Assembly: GCA_010093995.1 (NCBI GenBank)
Contig: ML992505.1
Coordinates: forward strand, 1,195,147-1,259,146
Reading direction: 5' to 3'
DNA: 64,000 nucleotides
DNA from: Elsinoe ampelina
Lineage: Eukaryota
Shown piece by piece: positions 5,807-12,399 of the stretch (positions are counted from its first letter, which is position 1; every line of letters begins with the position of its first letter). A program made the position numbers and the translations under genes. The notes under the pieces were generated by a model, which was given only the letters and a program-made list of their open reading frames with translations, did not search any database and was not told where the DNA came from.

Positions 5807-8800
5807 GGCAGGACGAGAGGGGAAGGGCGGGAGGTGGTGATGTTGAGGGTGGATGTGTCACGGAGTTTTGGATTAACGTGATGGATTGTATGTGATTGCT
5901 CTTCGGTTATGGCGTTCGGAGGCGGAAATCTGTTGTGGAATCATGGGTCACTGGACACGAGTTAATGCAACGCGTTACGATACGTTCCTTGAAGTGCAGA
6001 TGTATGTTTTGCTACTGACAGCGCCTGGCACGTACCATTGATCACTGCCATGATGTCTATTACACTATGCTCGCCACGCATGGATATTTGTGACACGCCT
6101 TTGACCCAACAAAACAAGCAGGAAGACCAGACCAATGTACAAATTCAATCACCTGCTAATCAAATAATAATCACCTCTGGTAGTTTGATATCCCGAAGTC
6201 CAATATCACTTGACCAGTATCATGTACGTTTTGCTTCAATCCTGCATGCTCATTCAACGGTATGCCTTCCACTATTCACTACGCCAACCCAGCAGTGGAA
6301 ATGATCCCATGCAGTACTTGGGGTTGTCCCTGTCCTGGTATCGAGGTATTCGTCCCTCAATGTCCCGAACATTTCCCAGTGTGCTACAGAATCTTACTCT
6401 CTGAGGACAATGGGCTGGATGGATCTCGGATGTCTGCTTTGTGTGGTGTTCCAATATCAGACTCTGGTTGCGTCTCGGCGGAGCAGAAGGTCGCTACTGC
6501 AGTGGGGTTCTAAAGGTCTACGTGCTCTGCTGGTTCACCATGGCGTCCTATGATGGTCTGTTCAGATATGCTGAGTTGAGTCGGGTATTCGATTGATCAG
6601 AAAGATCTGGCTCAACCATCGGTCCTTGTAGCGTTAGATAGATGATGGATCAAGTAGTTGATGGTGTTTCGTGCTGCTTGGGCACAACTGATGGCGCGAC
6701 CTGTGTCTATGTTGCTGTCAGAGCTGACGGTCGCTGCCGCGTGATTCCTGCTAAACGCTTGAGGTATGCCAACCACGTGCTCATCTAAGATTGTTGATAC
6801 CAACGCTGAGAGGCCCCCGTGCTGGTTCATGCCCGTTTACCTTGCTGCTGTAGCTCATGCCTTTTACCTATTGCTGTAACAGTCTCGTTGCCGGGGAGTC
6901 GTCAGCGCGCAGAATCCTGTCATCATCACATGATGAATGCATAGCTTGCATCTGGAAGACACTTTGTGACAGATGCAACTTCTGTGTAGCAAGTCAACAC
7001 AAACATCACAGGTGATGCTGCATGGCGTTGAGGATGGAGGGTTGCCCAGAGGTTGGAGCTTGGTCCTCGGTTCATGCAGGCTGACGGATTTGCTCCTCCC
7101 GAAATCGGGCGGAACTTCTTCACTCCATCCATCAATTCGGTGTACAACCACAACTCGTGCACCGTGATCTTCAGCGGTTATGAGCGTCAATCAGAGAGCA
7201 TTCTGATCTCACCAATACGTTGAGGATGCTATGCAAGATGTCGCTCGACCTGAGCTCACAAAGGATGGCCTCCGGTGACGCGCATCGCCTCTCCTCGACC
7301 ACATCGCAAAGCTCTACAATGACGGCCATTGCGATAGCGACACTGCCGTGCAGCTCGAGTAGAGTAGTCGAGGATGATTAAAAACTCGAAACTTGGGGAG
7401 GATGGCGAAGAACACCTCGCGGAGGGCATTGCAGCTCCGCCCGAGTGAGCGACAACAGGACAGATAGGCGTTGCGCACCCACCCAAGCGACCGCAAGATT
7501 GTGTTCAAGCACAGCTCATATACAACAGTATATCGTAGATGAGATCGGATAGTCAGAGTCCGCCCAGCTTGACCGACGACGACAACGTGTGCGACATGCA
7601 TCAGACGCCGGACCACTCGTGGCAATCCGAGGTTCTGATGACAGCGTTGAGAGCCGCCGAGGTACCGGAGAGGACAGCCTTAAGAGCCGGGAAAAGTGAC
7701 ATGAATACATCACCGGATCAGTATACCACATCAAGTCGCCATTGCCCGGGCTGTCCATGCGGGCACGACAGCCACAGCCTGCAAGCAGCAGTGTGTCCGA
7801 AGGCGTTGACGCCCACCGCAAGCATATACAATGGTTGCCTCACAGCCTGAGTATGGCAAATCGTACAATCCGCAGGAGCAACATCAACGCCTCGTTGAAG
7901 AATGTTGCTTTGTGGACATGAACTCCTGAGTCAGGCTCGCCCAGGACCTGGGCGTGGGCCTGGCTCAGGGGACTAGGAGCTGGACCTTGAGCTGGAGCTG
8001 GAGCTGGACCTGGTCTTGGACTGGATCTGGACCAGAAAAGAACTTGGAGTTCTGATGCCACGTTCCCGTATCAAGCATCGGTCCTGATTGGACCTCCTGC
8101 ACCAGTCATACCCTTGTCGGGCATTGACTTGGCTTGACTGAGCGAGCCACGCAGACTCGCATAGAGCCTTTAGACTCGGGAGTTACTCCTGCCATGTCCA
8201 CCGAGAAATCAAAGTGACAAGCGAGAAGAACAAAATGTGGATTAACGCATCACATGGAAATGAATCTTCAGAGATGTGCCAGGAAGCTTGTGGCAAATGG
8301 CCTGGGAAACAAACAGTCGACTGACTTACATCTGATCCATAATGCCACGTCAGCCAGGTTCCAGCGCTGTTGTCCGTCTTTGTCGCTGTGGACACGATCG
8401 GCCATGGTGTAACTCATCGATAAGGTCGAATCTCTCCTTTCATGCCTGCTCATCTTCCTCGGCATGAAGAGTACTGCCGATAATCTTCGGCTGTTGGACT
8501 GTGTGGTATCTCGAGTTCGCGGGACATGTTCACCAGTACTGCTCGATAGCGATGGTAGCGAGAGGGAGTCAACGATCCAGACGCGGTCTTTGACAACTTG
8601 CCCGACCACTTCTACATGGACATAAAGCCATCCAGTCTTCCGGCCCTGTCTGTATCATGCCGATGGCGCTCTAGGTTGTGGATGGAGTGGGTCGTATTTT
8701 GCTTCCCTCGAGGAACGAAATTGTCTGCCATTGAGCCTTGCCATTTGGGCTCCAACCCTGCTCTTGATAGCCGACGCATAGTCGGCCGGAGGGATACTCC

Positions 8801-10159: not shown

Positions 10160-10303
10160 AAAGACCTCAAGAGGTTGGCAAAGCAAAAATTGTTGTAACC
10201 CAGCTACCAGGGCTGGTACGCCAGACGCATCCGCTGTGCAATGGATGTTCTAGCGGTTCCGAGGCATTCATGAGGCCTGGAACTACAAGTGGCGGCACAG
10301 TAT
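10160..10303 (-). ncRNA. U1 snRNA-like variant A (5' end AUACUGUGCC)
   Basis: Minus strand AUACUGUGCCGCCAC; helix H UUGUA/UACAA; SL1 GUUCCAGGC-CUCAUGAAU-GCCUCGGAAC; SL2 CAUCC-AUUGCACAGC-GGAUG (U1A-type loop); SL3 CCAGC/GCUGG; Sm site AAUUUUUG (10184-10191); 3' hairpin ACCUC-UU-GAGGU. 3' end approximate. Confidence 0.88.
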
Positions 10304-10539: not shown

Positions 10540-10699
10540 GACGCCCTGAAGAGAAGGGTAAAGCAAAAATTACGCACAACCCTGGCGTCCCTACTTACCT
10601 TACTTACCCTGGGGTGGGACGCACAGAGACACATGGGTCCGAAGATGCCATGCGGAAGCAGAGACTTCATGATCTCTCCACTCCTGTGCAAGAAAGTAT
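10540..10699 (-). ncRNA. U1 snRNA-like variant B (5' end AUACUUUCUU; tandem 5' splice sites in SL3 loop)
   Basis: Helix H GCACA/UGUGC; SL1 GGAGUGGAGA-GAUCAUGAAG-UCUCUGCUUCC (U1-70K-type loop); short SL2 with UUCG and no AUUGCAC; SL3 GCGUCCC...GGGACGC; Sm site AAUUUUUG (10564-10571) followed by CUUUACCC. 3' end approximate. Confidence 0.88.
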
Positions 10700-11419: not shown

Positions 11420-11580
11420 GAAGCCCAGGATCGATGGGGGGTTCCAAAAATTATCCGGTGATCCTGTGCAAGCACAGTCCAAGCTTATCAGAACCAATGT
11501 GCAATGGCTCCAACTCACCTCGTACCAATGGCAGAACCATCAGCACAACCGGCGGGACCTGCTGGCTAGGCAAGTCGACT
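11420..11580 (-). ncRNA. U1 snRNA-like variant C (5' end AGUCGACUUGCCUAG)
   Basis: Helix H CCGGU/ACCGG; SL1 GUGCUGAUGG-UUCUG-CCAUUGGUAC (no 70K loop); SL2 GGAGCC-AUUGCACAUU-GGUUCU; SL3 CUGUGC-UU-GCACAG; Sm site AAUUUUUGG (about 11444-11452). TATAAAA (11619-11625) lies 45 nt upstream, as in copy A. Confidence 0.82.
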
Positions 11581-12221
11581 GAGAAAAGAAAGAGGGAAGA
11601 ACCTGGTGCGAAGAGTTCTTTTATACCTTCGTTCCCTCGGAGTTCGGTGCGTGTCGGCGCCGACATGGTTGGGAGCTTGTGAGGTCACCGCCGTGGTGAT
11701 GAGGTGGTTGGGGCAGAGACCAGCCACTTGTTCACAGCTGCCTTGGTTGGAAGCTTCCAAACAAGGCACAAATGGCGCTGGGTCAGCTCACCACCAGCGC
11801 GGAAGACCTCGTTGAAGGCCGTTGCTGTGAGGACGAGCGCCGATCAGCAAGCTACACCTTGGTTGAGACACTTCCAAACCGGTTCGCAGCGTACCAGGTG
11901 CACCGTGACCAAGCTGCGCCTCCCGTTGTCCTTGATGCCATTCCGTGCAGCTGCCGAAACATGCTCTGTGCACTTCCACCGCGTTCGAGGAAGCTCCATG
12001 ATGACGTGCCTGTATACCACCTGCGCTCGTACACGACCTGACGACCAGCGGACGTGAGGTATGGGATGGACCAACGGAGACTGTGGGCGCATGGCAGCAC
12101 GCGTGTCTTCGAGATGTTAGGCTGTGGAAGCGGATTCATCACAAGTCACAATGCTGGAGGGGAACAGGAGGCTCTTCTCCAAGGCACAGCTGTAAAGCCA
12201 TACAATGATGAAAACATCAAA

Positions 12222-12399
12222 CAGCGAGGCTGTGAAGAGGGTAAAGCAAAAATTCGGCGAGAGAACCTCGGAGAGATTCAGGCCCCGGAGTGCAATGGGA
12301 CCGGTCAAAGGGATTCATGAGCTCCAATGACCCACACCAGATGGTTTCGAAAAAGCATGTGCTGCTGCTGCTGTTGCATGGGCGGTACATACAATTTCT
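12222..12399 (-). ncRNA. U1 snRNA-like variant D (about 60-nt 5' extension with CAG repeat)
   Basis: Helix H UGGUG/CGCCG; SL1 GGUCAUUGGA-GCUCAUGAA-UCCCUUUGACC; SL2 GGUCCC-AUUGCACUCC-GGGGCC; SL3 GAAUCUC-UCC-GAGGUUC; Sm site AAUUUUUG (12247-12254) followed by CUUUACCC; TATAAAA at 12440-12446 and CTTCCTCTTTCTTTCTCC initiator. Confidence 0.85.

Follow-up and report, generated by a model that had tools for sequence, protein, structure and literature searches.

In a plant-infecting fungus we find an extra, remodelled U1-type gene, here called C, whose recognition sequence fits rare introns that start with GC and is predicted to be folded shut. Our preferred reading, held tentatively and with rather less than even confidence, makes C a hairpin-gated guide that would be used at a limited or regulated group of GC 5' splice sites alongside other variant small nuclear RNAs (snRNAs), and neither a general U1 nor one that works alone. 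The field has yet to settle how GC donors come to be chosen and whether variant U1s act on substrates of their own; if this reading is true, a base that reads C at intron position +2, combined with a self-hairpin that rejects GU, would amount to specificity built into the snRNA itself.

The gene cluster and the predicted architecture of C

The window (the whole 64,000-nt stretch of DNA analysed here, G000:C5:1195147-1259146 in a genome of 28.3 Mb) holds, on its minus strand, a tandem run of four U1-like genes with starts at 12399 (A), 11580 (C), 10699 (B), and 10303 (D). It is flanked by a WD40 gene with 83% identity to an Elsinoe fawcettii protein, which places the fungus among Elsinoe-like dothideomycetes. 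When four assembled contig sets were compared with the window, one contig ran across the whole cluster and small pieces were found elsewhere. The two canonical U1 genes of the genome (U1a and U1b, loci L001 and L002) lie on other contigs, and both begin AUACUUACCUU. A pattern built on the U1A-binding loop and the Sm site matched eight times genome-wide and never in the control; the eight comprise A, C, D, both canonical U1s, a fifth variant that we call E, and two matches without a U1-like fold. Altogether, the genome has at least five U1-derived variants and two other odd snRNA genes. A 67-nt GT-AG intron at 6707-6773 (minus strand, like the cluster, and 3.4 kb downstream of it) was skipped in one contig of run X1; the surrounding stretch has no long open reading frame and may be a spliced non-coding or read-through transcript.

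Gene C occupies 11420..11580 (minus strand, ~160 nt), both ends being predictions. Its 3' end is placed by a CTTCATC box, which also follows U1a, U1b, A, and D. Upstream lie a TATA box (TATAAAA, 11619..11625, minus strand), 45 nt from the predicted +1, and a pyrimidine-rich initiator tract (11581..11602, minus strand) that a promoter alignment of six genes identifies as common to the U1-type genes of this genome. The distance from TATA to start is 46 and 45 nt in the canonical U1s and 42-47 nt in A, B, and D; the predicted start of C at 11580 is thus supported by homology, through both this spacing and its position directly after the pyrimidine tract. No open reading frame of at least 120 amino acids overlaps C, and those nearby have no Pfam match above the cut-off.

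If the Sm site is kept free, C folds into a U1-like four-way junction, all on the minus strand, made up of helix H (5' strand CCGGU at 11548..11552, 3' strand ACCGG at 11455..11459), SL1 (11521..11547, a 12-bp stem with a 3-5 nt loop), SL2 (11481..11520, with the U1A-binding loop AUUGCAC at 11505-11499), and SL3 (11464..11477, a short stem with a CUUG loop), followed by the Sm site AAUUUUUGG (11444..11452, recognised as a sequence motif). SL1 is without the U1-70K-binding loop, which reads GAUCAUGAAG in U1a, U1b, and B and CUCAUGAAU in A, D, and E. The Sm site is followed by a terminal stem-loop, albeit a weak one of 4 bp as judged by eye, within a 3' tail (11420..11443, a weak SL4) that is unlike that of the other U1-type genes and is complementary to gene X on contig C16. 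The 141-nt form of C scored z=-2.18 (4 of 200 shuffles); folded without constraint, the 166-nt form adopted a different structure (z=-1.52, 18 of 200 shuffles). A chance set for this architecture was drawn by searching viral and prokaryote collections with the C-specific three-motif pattern (8 viral matches, and 80 used out of 114 prokaryote matches), and only 1 of the 88 passed the architecture test set by C, at half the energy per base.

The primary sequence has changed almost beyond alignment: only ~20 nt align with U1a, and no BLAST match to the other variants in the window extends beyond ~11 nt. That a U1-like structure and protein-binding loops were kept despite such sequence change argues for selection on C. 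C had no gathering-level match to any Rfam family, the U1 family (RF00003) included, and only its neighbor B was hit at all (E=0.13); the canonical U1 genes, at 63.8 and 55.6, also fall below the 69.5 cut-off. The promoter, the junction that helix H closes ahead of the Sm site, the U1A loop, the Sm site, and seven of the eight octamer bases are common to C and canonical U1 (RF00003; L001, L002). Canonical U1, unlike C, has an A opposite intron position +2, a single-stranded 5' ACUUACCU, and a U1-70K-binding loop in SL1; C instead has a G there, a 5-nt 5' extension, a 28-nt arm hairpinned over the octamer, a different 3' tail, and no recognition by RF00003. Because three defining U1 features are present (the junction, the U1A loop, and the Sm site) and three are missing (the Rfam score, the single-stranded 5' end, and the U1-70K loop), we regard C as U1-derived and not as a canonical U1.

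Predicted hairpin in the 5' arm and modelled donor binding

Read on the minus strand, 11580-11552 is AGTCGACTTGCCTAGCCAGCAGGTCCCGC (also given as AGUCGACUUGCCUAGCCAGCAGGUCCCGC). Within it, nt 6-13 (11575-11568) form a donor-recognition octamer, ACUUGCCU (equivalently ACTTGCCT), that is the exact complement of AG|GCAAGU and departs from the canonical U1 5' ends (ATACTTACCTT in L001 and L002) by a single A>G change, located opposite intron +2. The octamer is no rarity by itself (two copies in the window against 1.95 expected), but a chance 7/8 match to the U1 octamer within the 28-nt arm of such a U1-like gene has p ~0.008. It is preceded by a 5-nt extension, AGUCG (11576..11580, minus strand), where U1 has AU, and it is separated by exactly 15 nt from helix H, which starts at nt 29 (11552); the spacer is 2 nt in U1a and U1b. 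Both the complementarity to AG|GCAAGU with its one A>G change and a spacer of about 15 nt had been proposed for 11552..11580 in the initial annotation, and the sequence bears them out, although that annotation missed the missing U1-70K loop of SL1 and the hairpin strand that lies inside the "spacer."

This hairpin (11556..11576, minus strand) joins GACUUGC (11576-11570) to GCAGGUC (11562-11556) in 7 bp, nt 5-11 with nt 19-25, at pair probabilities of 0.95-1.0, and takes up six of the eight octamer bases. Its 3' strand is in effect an internal mimic of a GC donor, and its loop, CUAGCCA (11569-11563), leaves free the bases that pair with exon positions -1 and -2, possibly as a toehold. Exposing nt 6-13 would require 6.45 kcal/mol at 37 C or 8.06 kcal/mol at 25 C, compared with 0.0 in U1a and U1b. 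When the rest of the arm was shuffled around a fixed octamer, 149 of 5000 shuffles buried the octamer as stably, a chance level of ~3%. The hairpin is kept if the transcript begins at nt 5 (-8.6) and is weaker if it begins at nt 6 (-5.0). Pairing with C20 would by itself suffice to explain the A>G change.

Binding to donors was modelled with naked RNA, proteins and modified bases being outside the model. On 51 predicted GC donors, the hairpin-bearing C arm averaged -8.4 kcal/mol versus -5.3 for U1 and was the better binder at 44; the whole C core averaged -9.0 versus -5.5, was better at 46 of the 51, and bound in the expected register at 45, with 60 random 17-mers averaging -3.3 as a control. 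On 56 GTRAGT donors the order was reversed (-3.5 for C versus -7.4 for U1), with C better at only four. Once the hairpin strand was removed, C bound on average more strongly than U1 to both classes (-15.6 versus -5.3 for GC, and -10.1 versus -7.4 for GU). In these naked-RNA models, the hairpin thus appears to turn a promiscuous arm into a GC-selective one. The "GC-donor-specialised U1" of the initial annotation therefore stands in part: its preference for GC holds in the thermodynamic model, and holds more strongly than that annotation had argued, whereas a general U1 for GC-AG introns finds no footprint in a genome where such introns make up ~1% (see below). Its further suggestion, that C also pairs with GU by wobble, is not supported, because the 6.45 kcal/mol opening cost leaves C the better binder at just those four GU donors.

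The mechanism that we propose starts from a Pol II-type, Sm-class snRNA gene derived from U1, whose octamer would be locked by the internal GC-donor mimic, as computed. A perfect AG|GCAAGU site could pay the opening cost, but most GU sites, which would pair through a G-U wobble, could not. The unpaired loop bases that face the end of the exon would pair first, and the 3' strand would then be displaced. Since C has no U1-70K loop and its duplex would sit 15 nt from helix H, compared with 2 nt in U1a and U1b, a stand-alone U1 role is doubtful, and C would probably mark or mask a GC donor while spliceosome assembly came from partners; neighbor B, which presents GU-donor mimics matching canonical U1, may serve as an example. 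The outcome could be either activation or blocking. The same design might be borrowed for engineered U1s that would repair +2T>C splice mutations and leave normal sites free of competition.

Other variant snRNAs, possible partners, and conservation

Neighbor A (12225..12399, minus strand) has a 60-nt 5' arm (12340-12399) that is also folded on itself, and two of the four cluster genes (A and C) accordingly have occluded 5' ends. Neighbor B (10545..10699, minus strand) begins AUACUUUCUU and carries GU-donor mimics in SL3, in a loop with 10-nt complementarity to canonical U1, and neighbor D (10165..10303, minus strand) begins AUACUGUGCCG. Variant E (L049; G000:C9:403085, minus strand) shares the promoter and has at its 5' end GUAGCAC, which is similar to the branch-site-pairing GUAGUA in the U2 of this genome and would pair with UGCUAAC branch sites. 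Two further genes lie in the region beside U1a. One, V2 (L184:2149-2345, G000:C16:45348-45544, plus strand), is derived from U2, of which it keeps the 3' half (Rfam U2, 43.7 bits), and has a new 5' part with a branch-point mimic, UACUAAU, and GCUAGGCAA, which is complementary to nt 8-16 of C. The other, X (L184:6057-6240, G000:C16:49256-49439, plus strand), is an unclassified Sm-type gene whose 5' AUACUGACC is the complement of G|GUCAGU donors and which also contains AGGCAAG. A CUG-rich stretch beside GCUAGGCAA in V2 could, by eye, pair with the CAG-rich loop of A, for which the cofold gave only -5.4.

These genes bring in the best-surviving alternative, which we consider possible but unlikely: the hairpin of C is structural, or serves to pair with other snRNAs, the G being simply the partner of C20, and C works in an snRNA-snRNA complex with X (through its 3' tail) and/or V2. 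Among 10 partners, X gave the strongest predicted pairing with the 3' tail of C (-13.5 kcal/mol), a value reached by 4 of 300 tail shuffles and, when each shuffle was allowed its best of 10 partners, by 0 of 40 (the closest at -13.4). Further, nt 18-26 of V2 and nt 8-16 of C are perfectly complementary over 9 nt, X has its AGGCAAG, C and X have in common UUUGGAACCCC around the Sm site, and A likewise hides its 5' arm. However, these complementarities were found post hoc, the 9-nt complementary runs for C number two against 0.78 expected, and in cofolds with V2 and X the hairpin of C stays closed while the complementary stretches of V2 and X are themselves held in stems. Two other pairings were considered and rejected. 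The donor mimics of B are matched better by canonical U1 (10 nt) than by C, whose cofold with B reached -2.4 kcal/mol, and the C arm binds U2 only weakly (-4.9 and -3.2 kcal/mol). A search for dedicated protein paralogues in the genome returned one U1-C, one other zf-U1 protein, and one U1-70K, a search that divergent paralogues could escape.

A larger version of the hairpin-gated guide is that C is a natural toehold switch, auto-inhibited and firing only on GC sites, and a subunit of a second modular layer (A-E, V2, and X) whose members pair with one another and with canonical U1 and U2 to redirect the splicing of chosen transcripts. We think this possible but unlikely as a whole, and the wider set of variant snRNAs points to an unannotated layer of splicing control that Rfam misses.

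The metagenome scan used an A/D-type pattern that needs a loop absent from C, so that a C-like gene would be detectable only as a neighbor of a match. It yielded at least 80 loci, with 56 distinct matches among those listed, of which 23 have a canonical 5' end; the SL1 loop, first taken as variant-specific, proved widespread among canonical fungal U1s. No C-like gene was found among the 80 loci listed, which are mostly canonical fungal U1s together with one relative of E and one other variant. The E relative (L107, 86% identity over 56 nt, E=1e-9) has a different 5' arm and belongs to another fungus. A U1-like gene of another fungus (L070:328-451, minus strand) has a TATA box, a pyrimidine tract, and a non-canonical 5' AAUUGUCCUAUACCUGG, and L062:1-1530 joins a fungal U1-like sequence to AT-rich rRNA-like and bacterial-looking DNA and is probably a chimeric contig.

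The lack of a homolog among the 80 loci listed, read with the proviso that the pattern needed a loop absent from C, would fit a silent or decaying U1 paralogue with a relic octamer and a hairpin that arose by chance. So would the missing SL1 loop, which in human U1 is needed for Sm assembly and stability (PMC10870369, in the part available). Against this, the promoter, Sm site, and U1A loop of C are intact, and its stems are fully paired despite near-total sequence divergence, where pseudogene decay would have broken them; we therefore rate a dead gene as quite improbable.

GC-AG introns and known U1 variants

Introns were predicted from sequence shape, as a donor followed by a branch site and then YAG. 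Genome-wide, G|GCAAGT gave 84 pattern matches (77 distinct donors) and G|GTAAGT gave 322. The reversed-pattern control (89 versus 84) is a poor null, and intron length was used in its place: 51 of the GC donors give introns of 44-56 nt with a peak at 48-50, as GT introns do. In a 683-kb genome sample (L245-L297, L184-L192, and the window), the excess of short introns was 115+-13 for GT, 1.8+-8.4 for GC, -1.2+-8.6 for GA, and -8.6+-7.9 for GG; the lack of a GA or GG excess in this sample bears on the idea that B might serve GA donors generally. Scaled by hand to the genome, these figures correspond to ~4,800 GT introns and ~40 G|GCAAGT introns, or ~1%, a lower bound that leaves other GC donors outside the count. 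As fungi average 98.7% GT-AG (PMC7072748, in the part available), predicted GC-AG introns appear to be at an ordinary level in this genome and not expanded.

If C served these introns, its extra bases would predict U at -3, C at -4, and (C/U)GACU at +7 to +11, whereas canonical U1 here predicts A at -3. Of the 51 GC donors, 25 carry A at -3 (p=5e-5) and 7 carry U there, 22 carry A at -2, and neither -4 nor +7 to +11 has a significant excess matching C. Contacts with U5 could also favour A at -3. Stronger flanking complementarity to U1 is a known compensation at GC donors (PMC3167603, in the part available). Other footprints that C might leave were likewise at background. YGRY follows 5 of 84 GC donors and 17 of 322 GT donors genome-wide (Fisher p=0.79); targets complementary to the loop plus either hairpin strand numbered 20 versus 21 in the control and 37 versus 54; and the exon end UAG|, which a toehold would favour, occurs at none of the 51 GC donors. 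Exact AGGCAAGTCGAC sites other than C itself number five (3.4 expected, by our own arithmetic), of which four have no branch site and acceptor within 200 nt and the fifth has them only past an ordinary GT-AG intron. Pairing through the 5' extension was considered and dropped: the 11 YGAC donors among ~380 seemed many (p=0.03 on the genome background, 0.14 at 2%), and GC and GU donors did not differ.

With GC-AG introns at ~1% and GC donors that lack a footprint of the extra bases of C, a genome-wide GC-AG role for C is unsupported. It is also the least probable of our alternatives, that of a general GC-donor U1 with the GU wobble proposed in the initial annotation: the exact complement of AG|GCAAGU, the 44 of 51 GC donors at which C beats U1, the ~40 real-looking G|GCAAGT introns, the co-evolution of U1 5' ends with donors in Entamoeba and Mastigamoeba (bioRxiv 10.1101/2022.06.08.495308, in part), and the partial rescue of a +2T>C donor by some engineered U1s (PMC5931963, in part) speak for it, and are outweighed by the ordinary frequency of GC-AG, the lost GU binding (4 of 56), the missing U1-70K loop, the preference for A over U at -3 (25 versus 7 of 51) that canonical U1 or U5 would explain, and the failure of most tested human variant U1s to support splicing (PMC10870369, in part).

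The hairpin-gated guide that we prefer has partial parallels. Emiliania is said to have GC-donor U1 copies. The part of PMC3488318 available contains nothing on Emiliania U1. Human variant U1s, like C, are paralogues of U1 in which the 5' end or SL1 is altered; they are often arrayed, and their capacity for splicing is doubtful, most of those tested having failed to support it, which the authors ascribe to changes in the stem-loops (PMC10870369, in part); C differs in its self-pairing donor mimic, in having nearly all bases remodelled with the fold kept, and in belonging to a small and strongly differentiated set. In Entamoeba and Mastigamoeba, and in Eurytemora, where a U1 isoform has been proposed for GA donors (PMC7072748, in part), a one-base recognition change restores pairing with a non-canonical donor, as in C, but those are described as otherwise normal U1s in genomes where the odd donor is common, whereas here GC-AG introns are at ~1% and the octamer is occluded. 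The literature within our scope, with few subscription papers and no supplements, held nothing on a fungal set of U1 variants or on a hairpin-gated U1, and the main-text portions of Gao 2021 (PMC8216456) and of Li and Breaker 2017 (PMC5640933), supplements being outside that scope, contain no U1-like motif.

The set in this genome may have a counterpart in other fungi. The Pezizomycotina reportedly have "F snRNAs," four U1-related snRNAs in Neurospora said to control exon removal in regulators of sexual development. By that description, a filamentous ascomycete would again have a set of four snRNAs that come from U1 and have new 5' ends; if the description is right, C would be a member of an already described system.

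Seven metagenomic fungal U1s (L056, L065, L085, L095, L096, L103, and L118) have the 5' end replaced by a stretch resembling a branch site and acceptor, and these genes apparently carry a spliceosomal intron near the donor-recognition sequence. In the genome studied here, one of the three canonical U2 genes (L194; G000:C42:17220-17407, minus strand) likewise has an apparent spliceosomal intron in its 5' part.
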